Assembly (NCBI GenBank): GCA_003599255.1
Contig: QZJF01000017.1
Location: forward strand, 179,278-240,707
Length of the DNA stretch: 61,430 nt
Direction: 5' to 3'
DNA from: a candidate division WWE3 bacterium
GTDB lineage: Bacteria; Patescibacteriota; WWE3; UBA101185; UBA10185
The notes under the pieces were generated by a model. It saw only the letters and a list, made by a program, of their open reading frames with translations. It was not told the DNA's origin and made no database searches. This document shows positions 5,339 to 21,984 of this stretch, in pieces. The position numbers and the translations under genes are program-made. Numbering within the stretch: the first letter of the stretch is position 1; the number at the start of each line of letters is the position of its first letter.

Positions 5339-5970
5339 TGTTGCGCAAAGTACTAACTTACACATTTTTAATATTAGGACTGCTTTTAGATATAGCAGTT
5401 TTCGCAACAGCTAATAGTTACGCCCAGCTGGGGATTGCAACTGTCGGATATTTGGTCCTGGCGTTTTCATTCCTGTTAATATATCCCCGCAAGCACAGAA
5501 AAGCTGCTCAACTCAAACAGGATGATCAGAAAGTGCCGACTTTAAGCCTATCTCCTACGACCGAGGAAGAACCGGTCGAGGATGCAGATAAAAGGTCCTT
5601 CTTACATCTTATATGGAGTGCCGGCATCGCGTTCTTCATTTACTCAATAGTTAATAAGAGATCGGAACTATCCTTCTTTACCAGAGCTGGCGCCGGCTCA
5701 GGAATTACATCTATAGCAGACGCTGATGGAAATAAGATTAATCCGGCGCAAGAACACGCGATGCAAGGATATGTAATTTCCGATATCGACGAGCATGATT
5801 CAGATTCCGTGTATTACGGCTATACAAGGGAGGATGGCAAATGGTACATATCCCGACAAGTACTTGAGGACAATACATTCCGTTATTCAAGTGGCGCTGT
5901 TGATTATCCGTCAGCCTGGAACAGTAGAAAGAACCTAAATTACGACTACTTCTTTAACATCAAACTTTAA
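5338..5970 (+). CDS. Membrane protein, unknown function
   Basis: 210 aa with three hydrophobic helices and an aromatic-rich C-terminal domain. The start overlaps the upstream stop (TAATG), which suggests translational coupling. Confidence 0.5.
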   Translation: MLRKVLTYTFLILGLLLDIAVFATANSYAQLGIATVGYLVLAFSFLLIYPRKHRKAAQLKQDDQKVPTLSLSPTTEEEPVEDADKRSFLHLIWSAGIAFFIYSIVNKRSELSFFTRAGAGSGITSIADADGNKINPAQEHAMQGYVISDIDEHDSDSVYYGYTREDGKWYISRQVLEDNTFRYSSGAVDYPSAWNSRKNLNYDYFFNIKL

Positions 5971-6075
5971 CCTATATGTAGTTGACCTTTTTGTCACGAT
6001 TGTGTAAAACTGAAATTACGATAGTCGCATTATAAATAAGGAATCGGTTCCCATATACTGCCAAAATAAAAAACT

Positions 6076-6999
6076 ATGCCGGATTTATCAGTAATCATTC
6101 CGACCAGAAATGAAATCTATTTACAACCGACGATTGAGGACATAATCAAAAAAGCCAAATCTTCTGTTGAAATAATAGTTGTTTTAGACGGATACTGGCC
6201 CAATCCACAACTTCCCAGCTATAAAAACGTCATTATAATCCATCAAGGTACCATTTATGAAAATGCAGGTATGCGACAGTGTATAAATGCAGGTATGGCA
6301 GTAGCAAGTGGCACTTTTGTAATGAAATCTGATGGTCATTGTCTGTTTGACGAGGGATTTGACGTCAAGCTTATGGAAGACTGCGAGGATAACTGGGTTG
6401 TAATCCCCCGCAGATACAGGCTTGATGTAGAAAATTGGAAGGTTGCGCCGGATAGAAGACCGCCTATTGATTACCAATTTTTAACATATCCATACATTAA
6501 AACACATGACCCTGCCTGCGGATTGCACGGAGATGACTGGCGCGAAAGATATTTTGAAAGATTGGACATATTAATTGACGATAATATGTCAACACAGGGT
6601 TCGCTCTACTTTATGCCTAGGAGCTGGTGGTTCAAAATGATAGCACCCATGAATGTAGAACTTTACGGTCCGTTTATACAGGAAGCTCAGGAAATATGTA
6701 ATAACACATGGTTAGGGGGCGGACGCGTAGTTGTAAACAAAAAAACCTGGTATGCCCACTGGCATAAAGGAAAGGCGGGTAAGAATTATGGATTTTCAAA
6801 TGATAGGTATGCTTTCCATCAAGCTGAAAGGGACAGGGGCAGAAGGAACTGTATAGACTACTGGGTTAACAATAAATTTCCAAAAAAGGTATATGATTTT
6901 GAATGGCTGATAGAACGGTTTTGGCCCGTGCCGACATGGCCAAAAAACTGGAAGGAACAGTTAATTATTGATAAAGCAAAGGAAGACGCAACCGAATGA
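6076..6999 (+). CDS. GT-A fold glycosyltransferase (GT2-like) with ppGalNAc-T-like DxH...H metal-site pattern
   Basis: LSVIIPTRNE start, DGHC (DxH), and EICNNTWLGGGRVVVNKKTWYAHWHK. The last aligns without gaps to my recollection of the GalNAc-T motif [27 protein letters not shown]. No TM segment. Confidence 0.75.
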   Translation: MPDLSVIIPTRNEIYLQPTIEDIIKKAKSSVEIIVVLDGYWPNPQLPSYKNVIIIHQGTIYENAGMRQCINAGMAVASGTFVMKSDGHCLFDEGFDVKLMEDCEDNWVVIPRRYRLDVENWKVAPDRRPPIDYQFLTYPYIKTHDPACGLHGDDWRERYFERLDILIDDNMSTQGSLYFMPRSWWFKMIAPMNVELYGPFIQEAQEICNNTWLGGGRVVVNKKTWYAHWHKGKAGKNYGFSNDRYAFHQAERDRGRRNCIDYWVNNKFPKKVYDFEWLIERFWPVPTWPKNWKEQLIIDKAKEDATE

Positions 7000-7574
7000 A
7001 AATATTTCTAGATGTGGGTGCCCATACCGGTGAAACCCTAAAAATTGCATTAGAAGATAAATACAAGTTTGAAAAGATTTACTGTTTTGAACCGGTACGC
7101 GAGTGTTGCAATGAGATTCGAAAATTTTCCGACAACAGGGTAACTGTTTGTGAGTTCGGCTTGTGGGATAAGGACGGTTCTAAGCACCTATACAATCCGG
7201 GAAGCAAGGGGGCTTCGGTATTCAAAGATAAATTTAAAGATGAGGTTGCATCCCAAAGCCTTGACTTTGTAAGAGCGAGCAAATGGTTTTCCGAAAACAT
7301 TACTAGCGATGATACTGTGTATCTCAAACTAAACTGTGAGGGTGCAGAGTGCGCGATTTTAGATGACTTAATAGATTCGGGTGAATACAAAAAAATTAAT
7401 GTTGTGATGGTGGATTTCGACGTCAGGAAGATTCCCTCGCAAAAACATCGTATGGAGGAAATGAAGGAGAAACTCAACAAACTCAATATCCCGAAAGTAT
7501 TTTACATTGATGAATATCGCCTTGGGCGTGGTACGCATAATTTTTTTACGCACTACTGGCTGGATAACTCATGA
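6996..7574 (+). CDS. FkbM-family SAM-dependent methyltransferase
   Basis: FLDVGAHTGET...CFEP pattern typical of FkbM methyltransferases. ATGA start/stop overlap with the upstream gene. Confidence 0.7.
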   Translation: MKIFLDVGAHTGETLKIALEDKYKFEKIYCFEPVRECCNEIRKFSDNRVTVCEFGLWDKDGSKHLYNPGSKGASVFKDKFKDEVASQSLDFVRASKWFSENITSDDTVYLKLNCEGAECAILDDLIDSGEYKKINVVMVDFDVRKIPSQKHRMEEMKEKLNKLNIPKVFYIDEYRLGRGTHNFFTHYWLDNS

Positions 7575-8110
7575 AAATTATTACGTTAGAGAAAACAAGA
7601 AATGATCTTGCCCAAGAGTTCAGCGGAATAGGTGCGGAAATAGGTGTGGAACAGGGAGTGTTTTCAGAAATTATTTGTCTTAATAATAATGTGAAGAAGT
7701 TATATTCAATAGATGCGTGGAAGTCGTATAGGGGTTATAGAGATCATGTGCGACAACAGAAACTGGACAGTTTCTATGAGTTAAGTAAAATGCGTTTAGC
7801 AAAATATAATTGCGAAATCGTGCGCAAGTTTAGCAAGGAGGCAGCTTCGGATTTTATTGATGGTGCACTGGATTTTGTTTACATAGATGCGAACCACGAA
7901 TATGCCCACGTTCAAGATGACATTATGTTATGGGTCAAAAAGGTCAGGGTCGGCGGAATTGTAAGCGGCCATGATTATGTGAGAAGAAAAGGACAGGACA
8001 GCTTTTATGGTGTCGTGCGTGCCGTAAACGAATATGTTATTGAAAATAAAATTGAGGAGCTGGTTATTTATCGCGGGGATACCTCTCCGAGTTGGAAGTT
8101 TATAAAATGA
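7571..8110 (+). CDS. Class I SAM-dependent methyltransferase (Methyltransf_24 / CmcI-like)
   Basis: GAEIGVEQG glycine-rich motif, YIDANHEY, GGIVSGHDY. ATGA overlap with the upstream gene. Confidence 0.7.
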   Translation: MKIITLEKTRNDLAQEFSGIGAEIGVEQGVFSEIICLNNNVKKLYSIDAWKSYRGYRDHVRQQKLDSFYELSKMRLAKYNCEIVRKFSKEAASDFIDGALDFVYIDANHEYAHVQDDIMLWVKKVRVGGIVSGHDYVRRKGQDSFYGVVRAVNEYVIENKIEELVIYRGDTSPSWKFIK

Positions 8111-8781
8111 CGACTAATACAACACTAGAATTTATACTCAATAAATTTGGAATCAATTACGATGACAAGACGTCGATGCCGATAGAACTCCCCGGCTTTG
8201 GAAGATATGATCTTGCGTATATGTTTAAGGAGTTGGGATTTAATATCGGTGCGGAAATAGGTGTATATCAGGGTGAATACTCGGAAGTTTTATGTAAAGC
8301 TAATCCGCAAGCGAAACTATTTAGCATAGATCCATGGGAACCTCATGATGAATACACGGCATTTATAAAATCAAAAACATTTGAAAAAGCTTACGAAATG
8401 GCTAAAGCACGTCTCTCGGGTAGAAATTGTGAAATGATAAAGAAAAAGAGTCTTGATGCGGTAAAGGATTTTGCAGATGAATCACTGGACTTTGTGTATA
8501 TAGACGGGGATCATTCATTTCAGGCGTGTACAAACGATATAGTAGAGTGGTCCAAAAAGGTCCGTATGGGAGGCATAGTTGCCGGACACGATTATATAAA
8601 ACATTTGCCGCGATCAATAATCCATGTTTACGAGGTGGTAAACGGATACACTCAGGCTTACAGAATCAGACCCTGGTTTATTACCGCGTCAAAGGTGGTT
8701 ATAAATGGAGTAATTACTCCGGAAGAAAGAACATTCTTTTGGGTTAAAACTCCGTTTCCTGAGCCCAGGAGGTACGACTGA
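8107..8781 (+). CDS. Class I SAM-dependent methyltransferase (paralog of 7571-8110)
   Basis: GAEIGVYQG, YIDGDHSF, GGIVAGHDY. I prefer ATG 8107 (ATGA overlap with the upstream stop) over the track's upstream TTG at 8092. Confidence 0.7.
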   Translation: MTTNTTLEFILNKFGINYDDKTSMPIELPGFGRYDLAYMFKELGFNIGAEIGVYQGEYSEVLCKANPQAKLFSIDPWEPHDEYTAFIKSKTFEKAYEMAKARLSGRNCEMIKKKSLDAVKDFADESLDFVYIDGDHSFQACTNDIVEWSKKVRMGGIVAGHDYIKHLPRSIIHVYEVVNGYTQAYRIRPWFITASKVVINGVITPEERTFFWVKTPFPEPRRYD

Positions 8782-10223
8782 TGAGAATAGCCGTAATAAC
8801 CGCAAATTTAGGAAACTTTGATCCGGTTATCAAGCATGTGGATCAGTCTTTGCCGTGTGACTTTTACAGATTTACTGATGAAAACTTTCCGCCCAGGAGT
8901 AAAGCGATGACTCCAAGACTGCAGGCACGCATCGTAAAAATGTTCGGCTGGCAAATGGTTCCGGGTTACGACTATTATATTTGGGTCGATTCCTCTTTGA
9001 TTTTGTCCGACAAGGATTCTGTAAGTTGGTTTTTAAAACAATGTGAGAGTGTCGACATGGCGGTTTTTAAGCATCCCGAAAGAAACACTATTCAGGAAGA
9101 AGCGGACTTTTTAAAAGAACGCATTAACAGAAAAGACTCTTACATACTTTCAAGATATGAAAATGAATTAGTTGACGAACAACTGGCGGCAATTAAAGCC
9201 GATAAAAGTTTTGCAGATCAAAATTTGTTTGCTTCCAGCGCACTTATTTATAAAAATAATTCAAAAGTACACAATGTTATGTTTCAGTGGTGGCATCACA
9301 CCTCCAGATATCATACGATAGATCAGCTCTCACTCCCCTACGTATTGTTCAAACAAAATTGTTCCGTGAGAATAATACCCGATAATTATTTGAAGACTAC
9401 TTATCTACAACATGTAAGAAAATTTAAAGATCAAGAAGACTGGGATAACCAAAATAAAGAGCAGTATAAAAAAACAGAAGCTGAACTACAAGTGGAAAAG
9501 ATAATGGAAAATCTGGCAAAAGTGGAAAGTCCCCAATTGCAGTTAGACAAACCAAAGGAGGAACCTGAGGGGGTTTCCTCCAACACTACAAACCAGTACC
9601 AACATGTACTGGATTTTTGGCGCGAGTGGCTAGAAGGTAACGGCAAAGCATTTGAAAGATCAGGACGCTTAATTAACAGATTTGACTTTATGCTCAAGGG
9701 AAGAAAAAGGGCAACCATTGCCAACTTAGGAGCCGGCCCGGTGTGTTTAATAGGCAATTGGCGGCGCGATATAAAGGTAAATATAGTATCATCCGATATT
9801 CTGGCCGATGAATACGCGAAAATCCGCAAGGAACTGGACTTAAACCCGCAATATATTGTTGAAAAAGAAGACATGGAGAATCTAAGTTATGGAGATAACT
9901 CATTTGATATTGTTTATTGTGCGAATGCACTTGATCGTACAAAGAATCCTCGCAAAGCTTTGATGGAAATGTTTAGGCTTTGTAAGCCTGACGGATATGT
10001 TTATCTGAGGCACATTGTTGATAATGACTATAGACATTTAGATAAAAGTCCATATAAATGGAAAATAGAATTAATTGAAAGCGTGGATTGCAGATTTTCT
10101 AATTACACTTCAGAACAAAATGGTGAAGGATTTTTACTTTCCGAAGTTTACCAGGGATTTAAATCAAAGGTAGAATTAACTGCAAAGGGGGTGTTGATAA
10201 CTTCCTACGTACAAAAAAAGTAG
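8781..10223 (+). CDS. Fusion protein: DUF616 (TOD1/MUCI70-like) putative glycosyltransferase domain plus C-terminal SAM methyltransferase (Methyltransf_11-like)
   Basis: N-terminus has IAVITANLGNFD...YYIWVDSSL...FKHPERN, which is DUF616-like. The C-terminus has NLGAGP...FDIVYCANALD...LCKPDGYVYL, a class I MTase pattern. The two are joined by a charged linker. Confidence 0.65.
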   Translation: MRIAVITANLGNFDPVIKHVDQSLPCDFYRFTDENFPPRSKAMTPRLQARIVKMFGWQMVPGYDYYIWVDSSLILSDKDSVSWFLKQCESVDMAVFKHPERNTIQEEADFLKERINRKDSYILSRYENELVDEQLAAIKADKSFADQNLFASSALIYKNNSKVHNVMFQWWHHTSRYHTIDQLSLPYVLFKQNCSVRIIPDNYLKTTYLQHVRKFKDQEDWDNQNKEQYKKTEAELQVEKIMENLAKVESPQLQLDKPKEEPEGVSSNTTNQYQHVLDFWREWLEGNGKAFERSGRLINRFDFMLKGRKRATIANLGAGPVCLIGNWRRDIKVNIVSSDILADEYAKIRKELDLNPQYIVEKEDMENLSYGDNSFDIVYCANALDRTKNPRKALMEMFRLCKPDGYVYLRHIVDNDYRHLDKSPYKWKIELIESVDCRFSNYTSEQNGEGFLLSEVYQGFKSKVELTAKGVLITSYVQKK

Positions 10224-10244
10224 ACTTGATGCCCACACACAACT

Positions 10245-10949
10245 ATGGACGATTTAACAATTATCTATTACACAGCAAATAAAAACAGCGACGTTTTTAT
10301 GAGAAGCACTCAGAAAATTTTACTTCATGCAATTGGGGACACACCTATAATAAGTGTTTCGTTCAAACCGACTGTTATCGGAAGTAACTGTAAGAACATT
10401 TGCATTGGTGAACAGAAGCGTTCCAATTATATGATTTACAAACAAGTGTTGCTGGGTGTGCGCGAGGCCAAAACAAAATACGTTGCAATGGCTGAAGATG
10501 ATATGCTCTACTCCCCCGAACACTTTACCTATCGACCGCCTGATGACGAAACATTTTCTTACAATATAAATAAGTGGTCAATATTCTCATGGGTTAAGCC
10601 CCCCTATCTGTCCTATCGTGTAAGAAAATTGATGAATAGTTTGATAACTACAAATTCGGCACTGCAAAAAACGTTGGAGGAAAGATATGAGAAATATCCC
10701 GTGCTGGAAGAAATTCCGAAAGAATTTTTTAAGAAGTATTGGGGCGAGCCCGGGCGATTTGAGAATCATCTCGGCATTTCACCGGTAAAAACCGAGGAGT
10801 TTAGTTCATCCGTCCCTAATATAATGTTTTCTACATCCGAAGCACTGGGTTTTTTAGATTTAGGAGAGAGAAAAGCCCACAGCAATATTAAAGCGGATAA
10901 AGTTGAACCATGGGGTACTGCGGAGGAAATATTAAAGTTGTATGGATAA
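10245..10949 (+). CDS. Uncharacterised protein, putative GT-A-like module (paralog of the C-terminal half of 11485-13215)
   Basis: IIYYTANK...PIISVSFKP...EDDMLYSPEHF matches IIYYTDNK...PIISVSLKP...CEHDVLYHPSHF in the downstream protein. EDD/EHD could be a DxD-type motif. Confidence 0.5.
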   Translation: MDDLTIIYYTANKNSDVFMRSTQKILLHAIGDTPIISVSFKPTVIGSNCKNICIGEQKRSNYMIYKQVLLGVREAKTKYVAMAEDDMLYSPEHFTYRPPDDETFSYNINKWSIFSWVKPPYLSYRVRKLMNSLITTNSALQKTLEERYEKYPVLEEIPKEFFKKYWGEPGRFENHLGISPVKTEEFSSSVPNIMFSTSEALGFLDLGERKAHSNIKADKVEPWGTAEEILKLYG

Positions 10950-10958
10950 TAAATTAAT

Positions 10959-11492
10959 ATGCACCCTGCCTCGTTAGAGATAATGAAAAACTTTATAAAA
11001 TTGTATCTGCCAGATAAGAAATTAAATATCTTGGATTTGGGATGCCGCGTTGTACCCGGACAGGAACACCTCGGATCCTATAGACAACTTATAACAAACA
11101 AAAAATGGAAATACACCGGCGCGGATGTTGAGACCGGAACAAATGTGGACACGGTTATTGAGGACTATGAATTTCCATACAATGATGCTGCATTCGATAT
11201 TGTTATATCAGGACAAACAATAGAACACATTGAATTTCCATGGGTGTGGTTCAAAGAAATGGCACGTGTGCTAAAACCGGGCGGGTATTGTTGCATTATC
11301 GCGCCGGCGGTAATACACGAACACAAATACCCTATAGATACTTTTAGATACTATCCGGACGGTATGCGAGCTCTAGCTAAGTGGAGTAATCTTGAAGTCA
11401 TTGACGTAAGAAGACTTAGGGTTCATAACAAACGAATGGAAGACACGTACCTGATTGCAAAAAAACTGGAGGTAAAGAAGAAAAATGGCTGA
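10959..11492 (+). CDS. Class I SAM-dependent methyltransferase (Methyltransf_11-like)
   Basis: ILDLGCR motif I, FDIVISGQTIEH, LKPGGYCCI, 177 aa. Confidence 0.75.
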   Translation: MHPASLEIMKNFIKLYLPDKKLNILDLGCRVVPGQEHLGSYRQLITNKKWKYTGADVETGTNVDTVIEDYEFPYNDAAFDIVISGQTIEHIEFPWVWFKEMARVLKPGGYCCIIAPAVIHEHKYPIDTFRYYPDGMRALAKWSNLEVIDVRRLRVHNKRMEDTYLIAKKLEVKKKNG

Positions 11493-13215
11493 CTTATCTA
11501 TATTAATACCTTCCCGTAACGAGATGTTCCTGAGAAGAACAGTTGAAAATATCCTTCAAAATATTGAGGGAGACACCGAGATAATTGCGGTTCTGGACGG
11601 AGAGTGGTCCGATCCCGGAATTCCTGATAACAAAAGGGTTAAACTCATATACAACCCGGTCAGTATTGGACAAAGAGCCGCTACAAATCAAGCAGCCCGT
11701 ATGTCCAATTCGAAATATTTAATGAAATGTGATGCACACTGCTCTTTTGATAAAGGTTTTGATATTAAAATGATAAGAGAGATGCGTGATGATTGGACAA
11801 TGGTTCCCTTAATGAGAAACCTCCATGCATTCGATTGGGTCTGCCCTGACGGACATAGGAGATACCAAGGTCCCAGTGGGCCATGTGAAATATGCGGAAA
11901 AGAAACCGTAAGAGATGTTGTGTGGATAGCCAAAGAAAGTCCGAAGAGTACCTCATACTGCTTTGATTCTACTCCACACTTTCAATACTTCGGAGAATTT
12001 ACCAAAAGACCTGAGGGCAAAGGGGATATTACTGAGACGATGTCACTGCAGGGCTCATGCTTTATGCTTACACAGGATAAGTATTGGGAGCTTAATATTT
12101 GCGATGAGAATTTCGGGAGTTGGGGCTCTCAGGGAATAGAGGTAGCGGTTAAAACCTGGCTCTCAGGTGGTCGTGTGATGGTGAATCATAAAACGTGGTA
12201 CGCCCACCTGTTTAGAACACAGGGAGGAGACTTCAGCTTCCCCTACCCCATATCCGGGAAAGATCAGGAAAAAGCCAAGCAGTATGCAAAAGATTTGTTT
12301 TTCAATAATAAGTGGGAAAAGCAGATTCATCCGCTTTTCTGGCTGGTCGAAAAATTTTGGCCGGTAAAGGGTTGGACGGAGGAAGACCTGCGCAAGTTAA
12401 AAAACAACACTTTTTCATTTTCGGAAAGCGCAGCATTAACGGTAAAACCTGTTGAAAGCGAACCTACGGAAGATACTATTTCTCCCGTAAAAACTGAAAT
12501 TGCCGTCACGGTAAACGCCCCGTCTGAAGAGCCTTCGAAGGGAATTATTTATTACACTGATAACAAATTAAAGCTAAAAATTGCTCGGGAAGTACAAAAT
12601 CAGTTAAGAGTAATAAGTAAGAATTTGAACATACCTATTATAAGTGTTTCTCTGAAACCGATGTCACACTTCGGTAATAAAAACATATGGTTAAAGCACT
12701 TAAAAAGGAGTCACTTGGCTATGTTTAAACAGATACTAGCAGCATTAGAAAACAGTACTGCAGATATAATATTTTTCTGTGAACACGATGTTTTATATCA
12801 TCCGTCTCATTTTGATTTCATACCTCCGACAAAAGATAAATTCTATTATAATCAGAACTTTTGGAAATTGCGCGTAGAGGACGGGCACGCGGTACACTTT
12901 GATGCCAACCAGGTAAACGGGATGTGTGTGTACAGAGAATTGGCTCTCAAAGAATACAGAGAAAGAGTCGCTATCGTTGAAAAAAACGGATACGATCGGA
13001 ATATGGGATTTGAACCCGGGACTCACGACGGCAGATTCGGTGTATGGAAATCTCCCCTCCCTATAATAGATATCCGCCACACAAGCAATATGACAAAAAA
13101 TCGTTGGAGTCAGGACGAATTCAGAAACAAAGACAGTTGCCGGGGATGGGTTGAAACGGACGATGAAATTCCGGGTTGGGGAAAAACAAAAGATTTAATT
13201 AAGAAATTGGGTTAG
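11485..13215 (+). CDS. Two-module glycosyltransferase: ppGalNAc-T-like GT-A domain (paralog of 6076-6999) plus a second module (paralog of 10245-10949)
   Basis: LSILIPSRNE, DAHC (DxH), WLSGGRVMVNHKTWYAHLFR, then a P/E/T linker and the IIYYTDNK...CEHDVLY module. It also has a Cys/His insert, CPDGH...CEIC (11842-11895), that is absent from the paralog. Confidence 0.75.
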   Translation: MADLSILIPSRNEMFLRRTVENILQNIEGDTEIIAVLDGEWSDPGIPDNKRVKLIYNPVSIGQRAATNQAARMSNSKYLMKCDAHCSFDKGFDIKMIREMRDDWTMVPLMRNLHAFDWVCPDGHRRYQGPSGPCEICGKETVRDVVWIAKESPKSTSYCFDSTPHFQYFGEFTKRPEGKGDITETMSLQGSCFMLTQDKYWELNICDENFGSWGSQGIEVAVKTWLSGGRVMVNHKTWYAHLFRTQGGDFSFPYPISGKDQEKAKQYAKDLFFNNKWEKQIHPLFWLVEKFWPVKGWTEEDLRKLKNNTFSFSESAALTVKPVESEPTEDTISPVKTEIAVTVNAPSEEPSKGIIYYTDNKLKLKIAREVQNQLRVISKNLNIPIISVSLKPMSHFGNKNIWLKHLKRSHLAMFKQILAALENSTADIIFFCEHDVLYHPSHFDFIPPTKDKFYYNQNFWKLRVEDGHAVHFDANQVNGMCVYRELALKEYRERVAIVEKNGYDRNMGFEPGTHDGRFGVWKSPLPIIDIRHTSNMTKNRWSQDEFRNKDSCRGWVETDDEIPGWGKTKDLIKKLG

Positions 13216-13338
13216 TGTCCCACTACCTTTATCATTATAATAAGTACAGAAATGTATTTGTACTCCCACAAATATTATGAGTAGCACGGCAGAAATTACA
13301 AAATATAAGGCACCTATAGGATTATTTTGGAGTATCCG

Positions 13339-13599
13339 ATGAGCCGCTGGAATAGCTGGAACATGAAATACGGAAAATATTGGATGATTCAGTGGCAGAT
13401 AAATAACTGGGTTTCCTTTGGTATTCACGTAGACTGGAGCAGAAAGTACACCGGAAGAGATCACATTCCTTATGGACCCTATGTAGATATACATTTTCTT
13501 TTTTTTATCTTCAGTTTTGGATACAATCCAAAGTATTCAAATGAGGCGGAATTACTCGCCATTGGGAGAGGGGGTATAGATGCCGACAACGATAACTAA
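13339..13599 (+). CDS. Small Trp-rich hypothetical protein
   Basis: GGAG lies 6 nt upstream of ATG 13339. 86 aa ([24 protein letters not shown]...). Its 3' end overlaps the giant gene start by 20 nt. No family recognised. Confidence 0.35.
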
Positions 13600-16500
13600 A
13601 TACTTCAGTTTTAACTCTACTATAGAAGGATTCACTGGAACTCCGGGCAACGCGTCAACTACAATGACCCGGGATACAACTGAAGACTCAACAAACGATT
13701 CCAACGCTGGTACAGGAACTCTTCAATGTATCACATCAGGTAAGAATAAAAATTCTACATCCACTTGGAATTGGACCGGTACATACGAGAGCATGGGAGT
13801 ACCTGCGGGTGCAGTGGTCACTGATGTAAACATAAACTATGACTACAAATGTTACTCCTATGCTGTTGGTAATACGTGCCATTCAGGACCGCTAACCTTT
13901 GGCGGCACCCAAATATCGGGAGAAAACTCAATAACCGGAACAACTTCTTGGATTACCGTAACAGGAACCGCAATTACGGGATTAACTGATCCTTCCAGCA
14001 CATCAAAAACTATTTCTATTACTCTTGATACTGCTACCGGAAACTCAAATTCAGCTGTTGTAGGGGTTAGAAATGACTGGATAGCCGTATCTATAACTTA
14101 TACGGGAGTATCTCCCAGTGCTTCTATTTCGCCATCGGCTTCAGCTTCGGCGTCGGTGTCTCCTAGCGCATCCGTTAGTCCGAGCGCTTCGATTTCCCCT
14201 TCAGCTAGTGCAAGTGCTTCGATATCTCCTTCAGCTAGCTTATCACCAAGCTCTTCAGCTTCTGCCTCCATCAGTCCCTCTGCCAGTATTTCTCCTAGTT
14301 CTTCACTCTCACCAAGTGTGTCGGTATCCGCTTCAATTTCTCCAAGCCCTTCTCCAGGATCTACCGGGATTGTAGATATGTATGACGAAAAAGAGATGAA
14401 TGATTTTGAATGGCTGGGAGAGGCCGAGGACGGAATGGGGACAGGTCAATCATTCACAGGCGATGGGGGAGTGCTAAAGAGCGCGTATTTCTATCTGGCT
14501 CTTAGCTACGGTACCCCTAGCGGAAACATGTACGCGAAGATATTTGCCCACACTGGGACCTATGGAACTAGTTCCTTACCAACAGGATCGCCTTTAGCAG
14601 TATCTGACCCGGTAGACTCGTCAACTGTAGTCAGTACAGAATATAACTATTTCAATTTTACTTTTTCCGGTGCTAATAAAATTACTTTAGAAAACGGTAC
14701 ATATTACGTATTAACCTTGGAATGGGACGGCATTGGCTCTTCGGCGGCTATTTATTGCGCTACTAACTCTAGTACTGGAAGCCACGGCGGAAATATTTGC
14801 GTCGCTAGTGAAGTTGCTTATCCAACAACAATCTGGGGCGTTAATATTAACGGTGACTTAATCTTTCGCATATTTTCTGATCTTGTGTCACCGTCAGCAA
14901 GTGTGAGTGCGTCTGTATCTCCCAGTGCCTCTACATCTCCAAGCGCATCCATTAGCCCATCGGCCAGCGCAAGCACCTCTGTTTCACCTTCGGCTTCTAT
15001 AAGTCCCTCGGCAAGTGCAAGTGCTTCTGTATCACCCAGCGCGAGTATTTCACCAAGCGCTTCTGTTTCTGTATCTATAAGCCCGTCGGCAAGTGTTTCT
15101 CCAAGTGTCTCTGTATCAGCATCGGTATCACCAAGCGCTTCAATTAGTCCGTCAGCTTCTATATCTCCAAGCACTTCCGCGTCGGCCTCCGTTAGTCCAT
15201 CTGCCTCTATTAGTCCATCTGCGAGTGTAAGTGCTTCTATTTCTCCATCAGCTTCGATTAGTCCCTCAGCCAGTATGTCTCCGTCATCGAGTGCGAGTGA
15301 GTCAATATCTCCAAGCGCATCAATATCTCCGTCAGCATCGGTATCGGCAAGCATCTCGCCGTCCGCTTCAATCAGTCCTTCTGCAAGCGTATCTCCCAGC
15401 GCTTCGGCATCTGCGTCAATCAGTCCTTCGGCAAGCATCTCGCCGTCCGCTTCTTCATCCGCATCCGTGTCACCTTCGGCTTCGTTATCACCAAGTGCCT
15501 CAATATCTCCTTCAGCTTCCGCTTCTGCATCCATAAGCCCGTCGGCATCTGTAAGTCCTTCTGCAAGTATTAGCGCGTCTGTCAGCCCATCAGCCAGCGT
15601 AAGTCCAAGCGCCTCTATTTCACCAAGTTCCTCAGCTTCGGCCTCCGTCTCACCAAGTGCTTCGATAAGTCCTAGCGCCTCAGCTTCAGCATCGGTTTCC
15701 CCATCTGCGAGTGTTTCGCCGTCAACAAGCATTAGTGCTTCTATCAGTCCCTCTGCTTCCGTAAGTCCATCCGCCTCGGCATCGGCTTCAATCAGCCCAA
15801 GCGCATCAATTTCGCCTTCTGCTTCAATTTCTCCCAGTGCTTCCGCGTCGGCATCAGTATCTCCAAGCGCGTCCGTTTCACCAAGTGCGTCCTTATCCGC
15901 GTCAATAAGTCCCTCGGCCAGTGTGAGTCCGAGTGCATCTGTATCTCCGAGCGCTTCAGCTTCGGCGTCTGTTTCACCCAGCGCATCCGTCAGTCCAAGC
16001 GCTTCAATATCTGCGTCCGTTTCGCCCAGTGCGTCAATATCTCCATCAGCTAGCACAAGCGCATCCGTATCCCCCTCGGCCAGTGTTTCTCCGTCAACTA
16101 GTGCGAGTGCTTCTGTTAGTCCATCGGCTTCCGTAAGCCCGTCGGCTAGTATAAGCGCCTCCATTAGTCCTTCTGCTTCAATTAGTCCCTCGGCAAGTGC
16201 AAGTGCTTCTATTTCTCCATCAGCTTCAGTTAGTCCTTCGGCCAGTACTTCCCCATCAGCGAGCGCTAGTGCTTCAATATCCCCCAGCGCTTCAATCAGT
16301 CCGTCCGCAAGCGCCAGTGCTTCTATTTCACCTTCAGCTTCAATCAGTCAATCTGCAAGTATATCTCCGAGCGCGTCAGCTTCGGCCTCCGTATCCCCAT
16401 CGGCAAGTATTTCACCAAGCGCTTCGGTGTCTGCATCAGTTTCGCCAAGTGCGTCCGTAAGTCCGTCAGCAAGCATAAGCGCATCTGTATCTCCCTCGGC

Positions 16501-19500
16501 TTCAGTAAGTCCTAGCGCATCTACGTCTGCTTCAACATCGCCTTCAGCCTCAATAAGCCCTTCCGCAAGTAGTAGCGCTTCTGTTAGCCCCTCAGCTTCA
16601 GTTTCTCCTTCCGCTTCTGTGTCTGCCTCAATCAGTCCCTCTGCCAGTATTTCACCATCAGCGAGCGAGAGTGCGTCCTTATCGCCTAGTGCATCAATAT
16701 CTCCATCAGCCTCGACATCGGCAAGTATCTCACCTTCAGCTTCAATCAGCCCGTCGTCTAGTATTAGCGCATCTGTATCTCCCTCGGCTTCAATTTCTCC
16801 CAGTGCTTCTATTAGTCCGAGTACTTCGGTTTCAGCTTCCGTATCGCCGAGCGCCTCGATAAGTCCTAGTGCATCAGCATCTGCGTCGATAAGTCCTTCA
16901 GCATCAATATCACCGAGCGCGTCGGTTAGTCCTTCAGCTAGTGCGAGTGCTTCTGTTAGTCCTTCGGCTTCTGTCAGCCCATCGGCTAGCGCAAGCGCTT
17001 CCATTAGTCCCTCTGCCTCGATCAGTCCCTCTGCAAGTATTAGTGCATCGATATCTCCATCGGCGTCGGTATCCGCCAGTATTTCACCGTCAGCTAGTGC
17101 AAGCGGGTCAGTATCACCAAGTGCATCAGTAAGCCCGTCGGCAAGCATTAGCGCGTCAATTAGTCCTTCAGCTTCAATCAGTCCGTCGGCAAGTATCAGT
17201 GCCTCTGTTTCGCCATCCGCATCGATTAGCCCCTCGTCTAGCATCAGTGCTTCAATCAGTCCCAGCGCATCAATATCACCTAGTGCATCGGCATCTGCCT
17301 CCGTCAGCCCGTCTGCGAGTGTATCTCCCTCAGCTAGTGCGAGTGCATCGGTATCACCCAGTGCATCCGTAAGTCCATCCGCTTCAGTATCGGGATCAAT
17401 TAGTCCATCAGCTTCGGTTAGTCCCTCGGTGAGCATTAGTGCTTCTGTAAGTCCAAGCGCATCTGTTAGCCCATCAGCTTCGATCTCTGCTTCTATCAGC
17501 CCTTCAGCCAGTGTTAGTCCTAGCGCTTCGGCTTCGGCTTCGGTATCCCCGAGTGCTTCGGTTTCTGCATCAGTATCTCCCAGTTCTTCTATCAGCCCGT
17601 CAGCGAGTATTAGTGCGTCAATATCGCCAAGCGCTTCAGTTAGTCCCAGCGCATCCGGATCTGCATCTATAAGTCCATCTTCTAGCGCTAGTCCTAGTCT
17701 TTCTGTATCAGCTTCAATATCGCCAAGTGCCTCAGTAAGTCCTTCAGCAAGTATCAGTGCCTCAATCAGTCCCAGTTCATCTATCTCGCCAAGTGCCTCG
17801 GTGTCTGCATCGGTATCACCAAGTGCTTCTATATCGCCAAGCGCATCAATTAGTCCATCGGCCAGTGTCTCTGCGAGTGTTTCGCCATCTGCAAGTGTTT
17901 CACCGTCTGCTTCGGTGTCTGCATCCGTAAGCCCAAGTGCATCAGTTTCTCCGTCTGCATCAGTGTCCCCCAGCGCTTCAGCATCCGCATCAGTTTCGCC
18001 ATCTGCCTCGATTAGTCCTTCAGCAAGTACAAGCGCATCAGTTTCTACATCTTCGTCGATTTCGCCCAGCGCTTCGGCATCTGCGTCGGTAAGTCCATCT
18101 GCGAGTGTATCTCCTTCGGCCAGTGCGAGTGGGTCTATATCACCAAGTGCTTCTATTAGCCCCAGCGCATCAGCTTCAGCGTCAATTTCGCCATCTGCCT
18201 CGATTAGTCCTTCTGCCTCGCTATCCTCTTCGGTTAGTCCGTCGGCTAGTGTGTCCCCAAGTGCGTCAATTTCTGCATCAATAAGTCCAAGCGCATCGAT
18301 TTCTCCATCAGCATCAATTAGTCCCTCGGCCAGTGCAAGTGCTTCTATATCGCCAAGTGCTTCAACTAGTCCATCGGCAAGTATCAGTGCTTCTCTAAGT
18401 CCTTCAGCAAGTGTTTCGCCCAGCGCGTCCGCGTCGGGATCTGTCTCTGCATCTGTATCTCCCTCGGCCAGCGCAAGTGCTTCTGTTAGTCCATCAGCGT
18501 CGGTTAGTCCATCGGCTAGCATAAGTGCATCCGTGTCTCCATCGACCAGCATTTCCCCGTCAGCTAGTGCAAGTGCTTCTATATCGCCCAGCGCATCAGT
18601 TAGTCCAAGTTCGTCCGGTTCAGCTTCAACATCTCCGAGTGCTTCCTTATCGGCATCAATTTCGCCTTCCGCATCAATAAGTCCATCCGCAAGTATCAGT
18701 GCCTCCCTAAGTCCTTCCGCGAGTGTTTCTCCGAGCCCGTCGGTATCTGCGTCAGTATCTCCCAGTGCTTCTATATCGCCCAGCGCATCAGTTAGTCCAT
18801 CAGCTAGTACAAGTGCTTCTGTTAGTCCATCAGCGTCGGTTAGTCCGTCGGCAAGCATAAGCGCTTCCATTAGCCCTTCAGCGTCATTAAGTCCGTCTGC
18901 TAGCGTTAGCTCTTCAGTAAGTCCTTCAGCTTCAATCAGCCCAAGCGCTTCAGCATCCGCATCCGTATCGCCAAGTTCATCTATATCTCCATCCGCACCT
19001 ATCAGTAGTCCCAGTGCATCCGTTAGCCCTTCTGCAAGTATCAGCGCGTCGGTTTCTCCTTCAGCTTCAGTAAGTCCTTCAGCCAGCGTCAGTGCTTCTG
19101 TGTCACCGAGCGCATCAATAAGCCCGAGTGCCTCTATCTCTGTATCAGTAAGTCCATCAGCTTCAATATCAGCCTCTATATCTCCTTCCGCATCAATAAG
19201 CCCATCGGCGAGTGCAAGTGCGTCAGTATCGCCCTCAGCAAGTGTTTCTCCATCGGCAAGCATTAGCACATCGATTAGTCCTTCAGCCTCAATAAGTCCT
19301 AGTGCCTCGCTATCCACATCAGTATCTCCAAGCGCAAGTATCTCGGCCTCTGCCAGTGTGAGCGCGTCAGTAAGTCCGTCAGCTAGCATTTCCCCGAGCG
19401 CGTCACTTTCAGCTTCGCTGAGTCCTAGTGCGTCAATATCCCCAAGTACAAGCGCCAGCGCATCTGAAAGTCCTTCAGCAAGTATCAGTGCCTCTGTCAG

Positions 19501-20551
19501 CCCAAGCACATCCGTTTCAGCGTCAATATCTCCTAGTGCCAGTTTGTCACCTAGCGCATCGATCTCTCCCAGTGCGTCTGTTTCTGCATCAATAAGTCCG
19601 TCGGCATCGATATCGCCATCGGCAAGTATCAGTGCATCGGTTAGCCCATCTGCCAGTGTCAGTGCCTCCCTATCTCCTTCAGCCTCACTTTCAACGTCGG
19701 TATCACCTAGTGCCTCGTTATCTGCATCAATGTCGCCATCGGCAAGTGTCAGCGCATCAATTTCGCCGTCTGCATCCAGATCTCCAAGCGCATCCGCTTC
19801 TGCGTCAGTATCACCCAGCGCCAGTTTGTCTCCATCTGCATCGGTTTCACCAAGCGCGTCCATTTCTGCATCGATATCGCCGTCAGCAAGTGTTAGTGCT
19901 TCTGTTAGTCCATCGGCCAGTGAAAGTTTATCCGTCAGTCCCAGCGCATCTGTGTCACCAAGCGCGTCGGTCTCGCCTTCGGCAAGTGCCAGCGGTTCAA
20001 TGTCTCCATCGGCAAGCATCTCGCCCAGCGCATCAATATCTCCAAGTGCAAGTTTGTCCCCATCTGCGTCAGAAAGCGCATCAACCTCGCCGTCGTTATC
20101 TGTATCGCCGAGCGCGTCTCTCAGTCCCTCATCATCGGAATCGGCAAGTGTCAGCCCGTCAGCTCCATCGCCATCATCAGCCTCTCCTACTCCTTCAGAG
20201 GAGTCCGAGTCAGAATCACCTTCGCCGTCTAAAAAGACTGCTTCGGCAAGTGTTAGTCCCTCTGCATCCGTGTCACCTTCGCCAAGCCCTGTACTTCCTC
20301 CGGTTGTTCCTTTACTTACGCAAACCGAGCCGGTAATAAATAGAAATGCCCATATTGTGGTAAGTAGAACCAAAGGGGTACCTTATCACGCACATCGGAC
20401 TGCCCAATACGTAATCTCATCATGGAACACACTCGGCAGACCGAAGAATGCAAAAATCGGAACAATCGGCTTTAATTTTGAAACCAGTAGTTTAGAAATC
20501 TGGATCGGGAAACAATGGTTAAGTTTGCCAATGAAAAAAATTGTGGTATAG
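13580..20551 (+). CDS. Giant (2323 aa) Ser/Pro/Ala-rich repeat protein, putative heavily O-glycosylated surface fibre
   Basis: A strong purine-rich RBS (GGGAGAGGGGG) precedes ATG 13580. Layout is a ~177-aa N-terminal domain, an 82-aa SPSAS repeat, a ~177-aa globular domain, a ~1800-aa SPSAS[IVLA] repeat, then a ~90-aa C-terminal domain. No N-terminal signal peptide or twin-arginine motif is visible. Confidence 0.85.
14111..14356 (+). repeat. Short SPSAS[IVL] coding repeat block 1
   Basis: 18-nt hexapeptide units with occasional 12-nt S[AV]S[IV] inserts. All six Ser codons are used within 14111-14242. Confidence 0.9.
14888..20290 (+). repeat. 5.4-kb degenerate coding repeat block 2 (SPSAS[IVLAT] hexapeptides punctuated by S[AV]S[IV])
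   Basis: Read directly from the translation. Super-units of 16 or 22 aa (2-3 hexapeptides plus one tetrapeptide). The DNA copies differ by synonymous codon choice. Confidence 0.9.
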
Positions 20552-20593
20552 GCTATTTCACAAAAATCTGTATGCTAAAATTATTTTGATACT

Positions 20594-20788
20594 ATGCACA
20601 TACCCCAACCAATTTATATTGAAATAGGAAAAGGCTTATACAAATTAGTTGGGATGCCCTCCATTGGTTCCTGGGATACATCACTTAGGCCCAAAAATCC
20701 TAAGCCCGGCACCCTTGGATTTAACACTCAAACAAATAGTCTCGAATATTGGGACGGTTCAGATTGGCTGGCAGCTCAGATGTCCTAG
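20594..20788 (+). CDS. Small protein paralogous to the C-terminal module of the giant protein
   Basis: GSWDTSLRPKNPKPGTLGFNTQTNSLEYWDGSDWLAAQM aligns with [39 protein letters not shown], the last 44 aa of the giant protein. Confidence 0.55.
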   Translation: MHIPQPIYIEIGKGLYKLVGMPSIGSWDTSLRPKNPKPGTLGFNTQTNSLEYWDGSDWLAAQMS

Positions 20789-20832
20789 TACAAACTATTG
20801 CCTTTACTCACCCCAGGATATATATTTTATAC

Positions 20833-21051
20833 ATGGGTATAATCAACTTCTTTAAAAACTTAAGTCCGACTGAATGGGTAGTCATCCTTGTTATTTTATT
20901 TGTTTTATTCGGCAGCAAAGTGCTCATGAAAATTGGAAAAACCGGAGGAGAAACTTTTAAAGAAATGAAAAAGGTTAAGAAAAGCTTCATGGATGCAGTT
21001 AATGATGATACTGACGTGAAGCCGGAAGGGGGTACAAAGGAAAATGTTTAG
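20833..21051 (+). CDS. tatA: Sec-independent translocase subunit TatA/E
   Basis: Internal ATG of track ORF 20749-21051. MGIINFFKNLSPTEWVVILVILFVLFGSKVL...KEMKK is the typical TatA TM helix, LFGSK hinge and amphipathic helix. Confidence 0.8.
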   Translation: MGIINFFKNLSPTEWVVILVILFVLFGSKVLMKIGKTGGETFKEMKKVKKSFMDAVNDDTDVKPEGGTKENV

Positions 21052-21208
21052 ATCACTAGGAACAACCGAGTGGATAGTAATTACCGTTATCGTGGTAGTT
21101 CTCTTGGGAAGTAAGAAGCTTCCGGAATTTTTCAAGGGAGTTTCTGATGCTGTGAAGGAATTCAAAAAAGCAGCAAAAGACGAGGGTGAACAAGAGAAAA
21201 AAGTCTGA
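21044..21208 (+). CDS. tatA: Second TatA/E-family subunit (54 aa, below the ORF-track cutoff)
   Basis: My own translation is MFRSLGTTEWIVITVIVVVLLGSKKLPEFFKGVSDAVKEFKKAAKDEGEQEKKV*. The start overlaps the first tatA stop by 8 nt. Confidence 0.75.
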   Translation: MFRSLGTTEWIVITVIVVVLLGSKKLPEFFKGVSDAVKEFKKAAKDEGEQEKKV

Positions 21209-21220
21209 TAAGCTTTTGCT

Positions 21221-21979
21221 GTGGACAATATTATTTCTCCCGAACTTGCCGAAGTAGTAAAAAAATATTCCCGCTTTTTTGAAGAGGTACGCAGACGTAT
21301 CCTCTTTACTTTCATTTTCTTTATTGTTGCAGCTTTTCTAGGTTTCATCTTTTACGAACAGATTGTTCGGTTTCTCATTGTTTCACTGAGTTTGGAAAAG
21401 ATCAATATAGTCTTCACCTCTCCGTTCCAGTTTATAAATCTTGCAATCGGTTGCGGAGTAGTGACAGGATTGGTTGCTGTTGTCCCGCTAATTATTTTTC
21501 AAATCCTGGCTTTTCTCAGACCCGCCTTAAAGGCCAAAGAGTTTAGAGCGACTTTAAGATTTCTGCCGTTTTCTATTTTTTTATTTATATTTGGATTTGT
21601 TTTCGGGATCCTAGTAATGAAATGGCAAATTGGGTTATTTCTGGAAAAAGCTGCTGCATTAAATATCGGAAATATTTTGGACATTAGCGGTATCTTGAAT
21701 ACCACACTTCTAATAGGAGCGATTATGGGAATTGCGTTTCAATTGCCAGTAATATTGTTACTGCTTCTGAACGTAGGAGTGTTAAGCCGTAAACAATTAA
21801 CTTCAAAAAGACCTTGGGTATATTTGGGATCATTTATTTTTACAATGTTTCTGCCAATAGATTCTGTCCTGGCAGATCTTTTTTTAGCACTGCCCATGAT
21901 CATACTGTTTGAAATAACACTGTTTCTCAATCTGATTAGCAAAAATAATTTAAAGAGTATTCTTAAATTGGGACATTAA
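21221..21979 (+). CDS. tatC: Sec-independent translocase subunit TatC
   Basis: 252 aa with six hydrophobic helices and an N-terminal FEEVRRRIL pattern. It follows two tatA genes. GTG start. Confidence 0.85.
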   Translation: MDNIISPELAEVVKKYSRFFEEVRRRILFTFIFFIVAAFLGFIFYEQIVRFLIVSLSLEKINIVFTSPFQFINLAIGCGVVTGLVAVVPLIIFQILAFLRPALKAKEFRATLRFLPFSIFLFIFGFVFGILVMKWQIGLFLEKAAALNIGNILDISGILNTTLLIGAIMGIAFQLPVILLLLLNVGVLSRKQLTSKRPWVYLGSFIFTMFLPIDSVLADLFLALPMIILFEITLFLNLISKNNLKSILKLGH

Positions 21980-21984
21980 TTTTT

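Follow-up and report, generated by a model that had tools for sequence, protein, structure and literature searches.

Bacteria of the Candidate Phyla Radiation (CPR), also called Patescibacteria, are mostly uncultivated episymbionts, and the way in which they attach to their hosts is poorly understood. In a 61,430-nucleotide stretch of a candidate division WWE3 genome (contig QZJF01000017.1, positions 179,278 to 240,707; the whole stretch is hereafter called the window), eight enzyme genes stand upstream of a gene for a giant protein built largely of SPSAS repeats. The question raised by this locus is whether the enzymes modify that protein and, if they do, how the product would reach the cell surface. 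The eight genes belong to a conserved cassette that, from sequence comparison and structure models, we read as a cytoplasmic line dedicated to the O-glycosylation and methylation of SPSAS-repeat fibres, with a rough probability of 0.6. A cytoplasmic tailoring line for the repeat protein had already been proposed in a preliminary description of this DNA, made from the letters alone; the grouping of the glycosyltransferases (GTs) and the co-occurrence of the genes argue for it, and glycosylation would be the activity that they imply. The genes concerned are the following.

6076-6999, + strand: soluble GT-A glycosyltransferase with the DxH motif DGHC (Glycos_transf_2, E-value 1.4e-10)
6996-7574, + strand: FkbM-family S-adenosylmethionine (SAM) methyltransferase (TIGR01444, 51.7 bits, cut-off 37.7)
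7571-8110, + strand: Methyltransf_24 SAM methyltransferase (PF13578, E 5.7e-16)
8092-8781, + strand: Methyltransf_24 SAM methyltransferase, paralogue of the preceding one (PF13578, E 3e-18)
8781-10223, + strand: fusion of a TOD1/MUCI70 (DUF616)-like GT with Methyltransf_11 (Pfam PF04765, PF08241)
10245-10949, + strand: predicted GT-A-fold glycosyltransferase module of no family, with an invariant E-x-D (AlphaFold2/Foldseek)
10959-11492, + strand: Methyltransf_11 SAM methyltransferase (PF08241, E 3.6e-12)
11485-13215, + strand: two-domain glycosyltransferase, with an N-terminal GT-A domain like those of N-acetylgalactosaminyltransferases (GalNAc-transferases, GalNAc-T) and a C-terminal copy of the GT-A module
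13580-20551, + strand: giant Ser/Pro/Ala-repeat protein of 2,323 residues, proposed glycosylation substrate and fibre

The fusion glycosyltransferase

The two-domain enzyme encoded at 11485-13215 is the most conserved product of the cassette, and its gene is usually the last before the repeat gene. Its homologues number more than 5,600; the 120 best among those listed are 55-82% identical to it and lie on CPR contigs. Pfam recognizes only its N-terminal ~105 residues, as Glycos_transf_2, and the N-terminal domain carries DAHC, WGSQGIE...H241 and a Cys4 insert. When HMMER was run against all sequences in the PDB, essentially only polypeptide GalNAc-transferases were matched, over residues 179-268 (GalNAc-T7, 9, 1, 10 and 2; E 1e-4 to 8e-3, and 1e-4 to 1e-2 over phmmer and hmmsearch together). 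A profile of 52 sequences is colinear with GalNAc-T1 at three points: the DxH motif, DAHC in both; WGSQGIEVAVKTWLSGG...H..FR, which aligns to the Gal/GalNAc-T motif of GalNAc-T1 including its His; and PLSWLVEKFWP, which aligns to PFSWYLENIYP. Across the same 52 sequences, D83, H85, W213, G214, E219 and H241 are invariant. The AlphaFold2 model has a mean predicted local distance difference test score (pLDDT) of 76, above 90 in the C-terminal module and poor over residues 110-350; in Foldseek searches, its best single-domain matches are GalNAc-T2, T4, T1, T10 and Toxoplasma T3 (E 5e-9 to 2e-7), with dozens of such chains aligned over 250-360 columns, and no other GT2 family in the top 50.

The product of 6076-6999 and the N-terminal half of the fusion enzyme are full-length paralogues (32% identity, E 6e-49). 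The preliminary description had seen a DxH motif in both, and both have it, as DGHC and as DAHC with its invariant D83 and H85. It had also likened both to the Gal/GalNAc-T motif, which stands firmly for 11485-13215 and more weakly for 6076-6999, whose likeness to the GT27 family comes by way of paralogy, since its own PDB matches are to generic GT2 enzymes.

The C-terminal half of the fusion enzyme is 38% identical (E 5e-18) to the product of 10245-10949, which matches no family in Pfam, NCBIfam or PHROGs. An AlphaFold2 model of the latter (pLDDT 85, predicted TM-score 0.84) places this unannotated module in the GT-A fold, with Foldseek matches in the PDB to SpsA, B4GALNT1, WrtF, EXTL2, GlcAT-P and TarP (E 1e-6 to 1e-4) and to a domain of PBCV-1 A64R; E84 and D86, the E-x-D motif, are invariant in the module alignment. 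The two copies of a GT-like module noticed earlier are thus confirmed by identity and by the modelled fold. Homologues may have the two domains of the fusion enzyme joined, split or swapped, or the module in duplicate, but the two stay together: they are separate genes in swapped order in three loci (L038, L043 and L034; loci are designated by L and a number), and forms of ~830 residues (833 in some) consist of the GT27-like domain followed by two tandem module copies. An intein, recognized by the Pfam Hint and intein-splicing domains, interrupts one fusion homologue; P0032 and P0003 are the homologues in which these variants were noticed.

The enzyme block and the giant repeat protein

The eight open reading frames (ORFs) fill 6076-13215 on the + strand with junctions of -4, -4, -19, -1, +21, +9 and -8 nt, in agreement with the co-directional, overlapping or closely spaced genes first described. 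Together they encode five domains of GT-A type and as many methyltransferase domains, all of them soluble, as had also been stated: neither the eight enzymes nor the giant protein contain a hydrophobic segment (19-residue Kyte-Doolittle mean, maximum below 1.3). Pfam and NCBIfam searches returned the domains that had been called by eye, namely Glycos_transf_2 (twice), FkbM, Methyltransf_24 (twice), TOD1_MUCI70 with Methyltransf_11, and a further Methyltransf_11. What does not hold is that the block runs straight into the giant gene, as a gap of 364 nt follows the last enzyme gene. A promoter and terminator scan of 3200-22200 gave counts equal to those in shuffled sequence and therefore says nothing about this gap.

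In the TOD1/MUCI70-like fusion (8781-10223), PF04765 covers residues 45-195 with 32.6 bits (cut-off 21.4) and PF08241 covers residues 316-408 (E 1e-12). The FkbM-family protein (6996-7574) has weak additional matches to Methyltransf_21 and RfbT. For the second Methyltransf_24 protein (8092-8781), the solved structure nearest in sequence is 6g7d, titled 'Methyltransferase domain protein' (E 1.6e-4), probably a mycobacterial methylmannose-polysaccharide O-methyltransferase. Its paralogue, 7571-8110, has homologues in 37 of the 47 cellular loci and in 58 of the 80 viral ones.

The giant protein matches its first description as a 2323-residue SPSAS-repeat protein: it contains 1,002 Ser (43%) and 203 SPSAS units, with Ser at every second position and a hexameric periodicity (identity 0.54 at lag 2 and 0.71 at lag 6). 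Globular domains at residues 1-185 and ~265-470, both variable, alternate with (S-x)n hexamer repeats at residues 169-264 and 431-2244, and a conserved domain of ~70 residues closes the chain. No signal peptide, transmembrane segment or hydrophobic segment occurs anywhere in it (maximum 19-residue Kyte-Doolittle mean 1.06), nor does its sequence hold an LPXTG anchor or an extended N-terminal signal peptide. The repeat is kept at the level of protein rather than of DNA, given that all six Ser codons are in use and that the gene has no exact DNA repeat of at least 40 nt. Recent tandem duplication of DNA was considered and ruled out, Tandem Repeats Finder having reported two weak arrays only besides the lack of such exact repeats.

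Across loci, the giants share one plan of hypervariable N-terminal domains, the repeat and a conserved end, 'IPSWN..GRPK..K.GT.GFN..T..LE.W.G..W..LPMKKI', which is kept in L009, L016, L028, L034, L038, L039, L043, L045, L069, L070 and L072. For the N-terminal globular domains of the window giant, Pfam and PHROG gave nothing usable, nor did a PDB sequence search of residues 1-478. The C-terminal motif matches phrog_1325 (E 4e-8) and, weakly and below the cut-off, Pfam DUF7360 (E 0.0035). It has 421 relatives in a representative library of 1.84 billion proteins; in some of these the motif is repeated in tandem as many as 15 times, or is accompanied by a T7-tail-fibre N-domain or a tail-spike domain. 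By these sequence relationships, the motif is classed as a tail-fibre-type repeat.

Pairing of the enzymes with the repeat gene in cells and phages

Cellular relatives were sampled as 44 loci centred on the fusion gene, of which the 28 with at least 3 kb of downstream DNA were evaluable for a repeat gene. A same-strand Ser-repeat ORF follows the fusion gene in 22 of the 28, three further loci with less downstream DNA show the start of the repeat gene, and no Ser-repeat ORF is found on either strand in 330 kb of upstream flank. Viral contigs in IMG/VR yielded 155 full-length relatives of the fusion enzyme (48-61% identity), many on contigs of 41-50 kb; 80 of these loci were examined, 61 were evaluable, and 51 of the 61 have a same-strand Ser-repeat ORF downstream, which starts within 500 bp in 33 cases. 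The pairing of enzymes and repeat gene is not a matter of chance. Co-occurrence in related genomes had been named at the outset as a test of the proposal, and the pairing in 22 of 28 cellular and 51 of 61 viral loci leaves the proposal standing.

Candidate division WWE3 genomes are the closest relatives for the cassette locus, and further relatives are spread over several CPR lineages, among them WWE3, Woesebacteria, Levybacteria and Saccharibacteria. Many cassette-bearing records are titled 'uncultured Gammaproteobacteria', with fusion enzymes 59-69% identical to that of the window; these titles look like mislabels, the tree neighbours being titled Woesebacteria, WWE3 and Levybacteria. The repeat gene is where many contigs break off, and this would go some way to explain the poor recovery of such genes from metagenome assemblies. 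On one contig of 925 kb, the giant gene is divided between the two ends, with its N-terminal part at one and its C-terminal part at the other. Antisense ORFs within giant genes are often mis-called by gene callers.

The viral loci range in G+C from 0.32 to 0.64, and their hosts are therefore probably diverse. Structural genes lie within a few kb of the enzymes, such as those for major head proteins in L081 (phrog_10, E 1e-65) and L102 (phrog_267, E 9e-23); in L074, a tail-spike homologue is directly 3' of the repeat gene, and an HNH endonuclease is also found on viral loci. GT and methyltransferase genes beside structural genes and a substrate, the arrangement that defines a phage virion cassette, are thus seen in L074, L081 and L102 but not in the window. 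Ten phage repeat proteins hold a homologue (32-51% identity) of the second globular domain of the window giant, and there are N-terminal domain types common to phage repeat proteins and CPR giants. In addition, small phage proteins combine a globular N-domain of ~130-170 residues with an SPSAS/SESP tail of 100-200 residues (L102:4425-5423, directly after the major head gene; L137:4613-5380; L095:5192-5959; L112:5101-6198); from their sequences, they look like decoration proteins with the same acceptor tag. The fusion enzyme has no match in 50,697 GenBank phage genomes, and in a Foldseek search against viral models, multi-GT proteins of the mimivirus family were matched. The preliminary description knew of no equivalent in CPR-like bacteria; the system occurs in CPR but is not specific to them, being present in many uncultivated phages as well.

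A wider cassette with Tat genes in cells

Cassette limits were set by tblastn of every window protein against related loci. The cassette proved wider than the enzyme block, with two membrane proteins at its head and genes of the pathway for twin-arginine translocation (Tat) at its end, all of which the preliminary description had missed. The stretch first marked out ends at 20788, which is the end of a small ORF that had been left undescribed. The additional genes are as follows.

3974-5338, + strand: Y1-transposase-like/transmembrane/SH3 membrane protein at the cassette head (Pfam Y1_Tnp E 3.7e-11, SH3_3 E 1.7e-9)
5338-5970, + strand: Memb210, membrane protein of 210 residues with three hydrophobic segments, candidate Tat substrate and membrane anchor
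20594-20788, + strand: ORF of 64 residues, stand-alone paralogue of the C-terminal motif of the giant (51% identity), matched like that motif by phrog_1325 and weakly by DUF7360
20833-21051, + strand: TatA-family protein, copy 1, with a transmembrane segment (PF02416, E 1.5e-9)
21044-21208, + strand: TatA-family protein, copy 2, with a transmembrane segment (MFRSLGTTEWIVITVIVVVLLGSKKLPEFFKG)
21221-21979, + strand: TatC, translocase receptor subunit (PF00902, E 1e-37)

The order of the cassette genes recurs across CPR lineages and the housekeeping flanks do not: TsaE, CorA, YGGT, DsbA and MgtE were never conserved in related loci by tblastn. TatC is downstream of the giant gene in seven loci (L006, L009, L028, L038, L039, L043 and L045), and among the GT-centred loci TatA is found in five and a small C-terminal-motif ORF before tatA in five. 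All four loci centred on TatC show the same succession of enzymes, giant gene or contig break, small ORF, one or two tatA genes, and tatC. TatA pairs stand upstream of tatC in L070, L071 and L072, and an ORF of the 64-residue type lies between the giant gene and tatA in L009, L038, L039, L043, L045, L069, L070, L071 and L072. For the first TatA copy of the window, the listed ORF starts at 20749 and the likely start is the ATG at 20833. A metagenome scan seeded with TatC returned distant TatCs only, which belong to unrelated organisms, are 24-44% identical and have no cassette genes beside them. Published work notes the presence of TatA/TatC in Microgenomatia, Paceibacteria and Saccharimonadia (PMC9166423).

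At the cassette head, the 3974-5338 product comprises a cytoplasmic Y1 domain (IS200/REP-type HUH), a transmembrane segment at residues 263-293, an acidic S/T linker and a C-terminal bacterial SH3 domain. In its Y1 domain, an HUH-like 'DHFHLII' is retained along with a C-terminal stretch that contains Tyr, and the SH3 domain is predicted to be extracellular. Y1/SH3 homologues stand at the cassette head in 13 loci, and L034 and L043 each have a second cassette that also begins with one; Memb210 homologues are at the cassette head in 15 loci; in L034, both together head a second, tandem cassette. Memb210 belongs to no Pfam, NCBIfam or PHROG family. An alignment of 17 copies has two N-terminal transmembrane segments, a variable linker, a twin-arginine-type motif and a conserved C-terminal domain of ~110 residues. 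The internal motif is [KR]R-x-F-[LI]-K-[LMF]-[IV]-G followed by a hydrophobic stretch, read as DKRSFLHL in the window copy, and among window ORFs of at least 100 residues only Memb210 has such a motif. TatA, TatC, Memb210 and the Y1/SH3 protein were found in none of the 80 viral loci.

A possible course of events

From the gene content, the folds and motif similarities, the lack of membrane or signal features and the gene order in cells and phages, we infer the following course. The giant protein would be made in the cytoplasm, where its SPSAS repeats would act as an acceptor tag for direct O-glycosylation. The fusion enzyme, possibly together with the 6076-6999 product, would put the first sugar directly on Ser hydroxyls of the repeats, on the model of polypeptide GalNAc-transferases acting on mucin repeats; the 10245-10949 module and the TOD1/MUCI70-like domain would then lengthen the glycan, and the five methyltransferase domains would O-methylate its sugars. 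The glycan probably varies between strains, because the enzyme set varies. In phages, the glycosylated product would go into virions in the cytoplasm, and no export step would be needed, as virions are assembled there.

For CPR, a further step can be proposed. The Tat pathway is the one pathway for folded or bulky cargo, and the CPR version of the cassette would have gained two TatA proteins, TatC and the three-transmembrane Memb210 with its internal KR/RR signal. Tat would insert Memb210, and the finished fibre may be exported with Memb210 or docked to it through the tail-fibre-type C-terminal motif, the outcome being a surface fibre with a hypervariable N-terminal tip. That CPR have in this way domesticated a phage glyco-fibre module as a surface adhesin, exporting the glycosylated fibre through a dedicated Tat system by hitch-hiking or docking on Memb210, is a possible but doubtful extension of the O-glycosylation proposal.

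Weighing the evidence

Several observations weigh against the proposal and its extension. The likeness of the fusion enzyme to GalNAc-transferases is remote (15-18% identity, TM-score ~0.25-0.3, with low pLDDT over residues 110-350), and its best Foldseek matches in the PDB overall are the polymerases K4CP (E 1e-10), PmHS2 and CHSY3-CHPF, with both GT-A domains aligned. In a PDB sequence search, the 6076-6999 product by itself matches generic GT2 enzymes only and no GalNAc-T. No repeat gene is present, within the available DNA, in 6 of 28 cellular and 10 of 61 viral evaluable loci: L007, L010 and L046 lack it in the 3.5-5.5 kb available, and in L020 the enzyme block goes on. Two giants, L029:12378-20948 and L047:11105-20973, end in 'IKT[VI]NGL' repeats and have no Tat genes nearby. 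As for export, KR is commoner than RR in Memb210 homologues, the giant protein has neither a Tat signal nor a twin-arginine-type motif in the scan of window ORFs, and a largely unstructured glycoprotein of 2,300 residues is an unusual Tat cargo; we know of no precedent for the Tat hitch-hiking of a giant glycoprotein.

The exceptional loci also offer variants of the arrangement. In L018 (6278-9734) and L035 (12597-16020), three tandem S/T/G/A-rich paralogues of ~375 residues replace the giant gene and may be alternative substrates. These paralogues carry 'NFAYSTVATAPSPATTGTSLVV...FP.VPFNATIWP' and no signal peptide. The giants of L029 and L047 are followed by several signal-peptide proteins with cohesin-like or dockerin-like sequences, and, as these replace Tat, their sequences suggest an alternative anchoring route.

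The polymerase matches bear most directly on an alternative in which the enzymes build a methylated polysaccharide or glycolipid unattached to the repeat protein, for example an alternating-sugar polymer synthesized by the two-GT-A fusion in the manner of glycosaminoglycan polymerases, or a polymethylated polysaccharide of the cytoplasm, with the repeat gene a mere neighbour in an envelope island. The GT-A module likewise matches TarP, SpsA and WrtF, the methyltransferase structure 6g7d probably belongs to a polysaccharide-modifying enzyme, and two genes upstream of the block fit such a role:

1349-2302: NAD-dependent NDP-sugar epimerase/dehydratase, overlapping the next gene
2275-3243: membrane GT2 with two C-terminal transmembrane segments, ~4 kb upstream of the block

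By sequence, the GT2 looks like a polyprenyl-phosphate glycosyltransferase of the GtrB/DPM1 type, and the pair could be a separate lipid-linked glycosylation route; epimerase homologues are found in 18 related cassettes and GT2 homologues in none. It had been stated earlier that no genes for transport, polymerization or sugar-nucleotide synthesis lie inside the block. The first part stands for the conserved cassette as well, which has no priming transferase, flippase, ABC exporter, polymerase, chain-length regulator or Kps-type gene; the second needs qualifying, as the epimerase lies 4 kb upstream and is often inside the block in relatives. Moreover, the polymerase matches reach a TM-score of only ~0.22 at 10-12% identity; the repeat gene is directionally, often immediately, downstream in both cells and phages; and in phages the enzymes lie a few kb from structural genes, with SPSAS tails on several virion-type proteins. 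A free polysaccharide or glycolipid product is therefore unlikely. The grouping of the GTs, also named earlier as a test, leans toward O-glycosylation of the repeat protein through the GalNAc-T matches but is not clean, because the top Foldseek matches are the two-GT-A polymerases K4CP and PmHS2.

According to a second alternative, the cassette is a phage-derived element that serves a virus or virus-like particle (a prophage remnant, satellite or tailocin-like element), the fibre never stands on the cell surface, and Tat serves Memb210 alone. In a rough neighbour-joining tree of the GT27-like domain, midpoint-rooted and without support values, cellular sequences fall into a few clades within a more diverse set of viral sequences; the N-terminal and second globular domain types of the giant recur in phage Ser-repeat proteins, its C-terminal motif is of the phage tail-fibre type, and it has no signal peptide. 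Nevertheless, clustering of the viral ORFs left the enzyme families alone as common to viral and cellular loci, and the viral structural families (head, portal-like and post-fibre) have no match in the window or in 51 cellular loci. The cellular cassette lies on chromosomes of 0.3-0.95 Mb together with Tat, Memb210 and Y1/SH3, which never occur in viral loci, and the gene content of the window itself is that of a bacterial chromosome (TsaE, TatC, CorA, BipA, a DEAD-box helicase and one tRNA). A prophage in the window was ruled out, PHROG scans of ten other ORFs having returned only a ClpP/SDH-type serine protease at 35267-36418 (phrog_11747, E 6e-35, with weak matches to head-maturation proteases), ~15 kb from the cassette; its neighbours, 36728-37876 and 37888-38769, match no family, and no further phage gene was found in the vicinity. 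We consider an element in the service of virus particles quite unlikely. Elsewhere in the window, a radical SAM/SPASM-domain protein (42879-44276), possibly a peptide-maturation enzyme, adjoins BipA (40817-42658).

That the repeat protein is an unmodified disordered spacer or adhesin, with the transferases acting on Memb210, the cell wall, small molecules or nucleic acid, is very unlikely: the PHROG name 'DNA methyltransferase' on the Methyltransf_24 proteins, which would favour it, is an unverified family label, whereas Methyltransf_24, FkbM and Methyltransf_11 are generic small-molecule or sugar O-methyltransferase folds, and the enzyme set that travels with SPSAS-tailed proteins in phages and cells would be left unexplained.

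Comparison with known systems

The proposed O-glycosylation line invites comparison with the serine-rich repeat proteins (SRRPs) and their accessory Sec system (GspB, Fap1 and SraP; GtfA/GtfB; SecA2/SecY2), in which a long (S-x)n protein likewise lies beside soluble cytoplasmic GTs, a dedicated, duplicated export machinery adjoins, modification in the cytoplasm precedes export, and a variable binding domain is joined to a long glycosylated stalk. Nonetheless, there is no homologous component. In the cassette, GT-A enzymes with DxH are the putative initiators instead of the GT-B pair GtfA/B; TatA/TatC adjoin instead of SecA2/SecY2/Asp1-3; the giant has neither a KxYKxGKxW signal peptide nor an LPXTG anchor; variability resides at the N-terminal end and conservation at the C-terminal end; methyltransferases are numerous; the host is a CPR bacterium; and the module is common to phages. 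The analogy to SRRPs, on which the preliminary description leaned, therefore holds for the (S-x)n repeat and the cytoplasmic GTs and fails for the signal peptide, LPXTG, GtfA/B and SecA2/SecY2/Asp.

With the animal and apicomplexan polypeptide GalNAc-transferases of GT27, which initiate mucin-type O-glycosylation, the fusion enzyme shares the GT-A fold, DxH, the Gal/GalNAc-T motif with its His, and 'F/L-S-W-[YL]-[LV]-E-[NK]' where the catalytic domain ends, all colinear, and a Ser/Pro-rich tandem repeat as putative acceptor. In contrast to them, it has a second GT-A domain in place of the ricin-type lectin domain, no type II anchor, a cytoplasmic rather than luminal location, a Cys4 insert and only 15-18% identity. 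It is not filed as GT27, because the lectin domain and the membrane anchor are absent. K4CP and PmHS2 also unite two GT-A domains in one chain, and the cassette lacks Kps-type or ABC export genes.

Among phages, a precedent is reported for mycobacteriophages, whose capsid and tail-tube proteins are modified by tandem GTs with an O-methyltransferase (PMC11600133, citing Freeman 2023). In Che8 and Corndog/cluster O, the genes for soluble GTs and an O-methyltransferase adjoin those for structural proteins; it is virion proteins that are modified, in the host cytoplasm (PMC11600133). The enzyme family of the present cassette is a different one, as reflected by the absence of matches in GenBank phage genomes; moreover, its main acceptor would be a separate fibre of 1,000-2,300 residues, and the module is also chromosomal in CPR, with Tat. 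The viral form is thus a new enzyme family within known phage virion glycosylation.

Giant viruses (the chlorovirus GT-GT-methyltransferase A064R; the mimivirus family, with multi-GT proteins that decorate fibrils) similarly have soluble multi-domain GT-A enzymes fused or clustered with methyltransferases, and methylated glycans on structural proteins made without the host secretory pathway. The resemblance is at the level of the fold only, and hosts and linkage chemistry differ, the glycans of chloroviruses being N-linked. Finally, the Rieske proteins of Streptomyces and plants have an internal twin-arginine signal and are inserted by both Sec and Tat. Memb210 recalls them in having two transmembrane segments, then [KR]R-x-F-L-K with a third hydrophobic segment and a folded C-terminal domain, but differs in having no evident cofactor-binding domain.

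Implications

The literature covered, which left most subscription journals outside, describes neither the cassette nor proteins with SPSAS repeats, nor does it link them to Tat in CPR. For these bacteria, the cassette would rank among the most conserved and at the same time most strain-variable surface systems. The presence of the module in phages suggests that the glycosylation of virion proteins is common among environmental phages, and SPSAS-type tails are suggested as portable acceptor tags. With soluble relatives of GalNAc-transferases from bacteria and phages as tools, mucin-like glycoproteins could be produced in bacteria, and these enzymes bear on the origin of GT27. If Tat is truly dedicated to a glycosylated fibre, this would be a new use of the pathway and a counterpart of accessory Sec; and if CPR have domesticated a phage glyco-fibre module, a bacterial or phage relative would stand near the root of the enzymes of mucin-type O-glycosylation.

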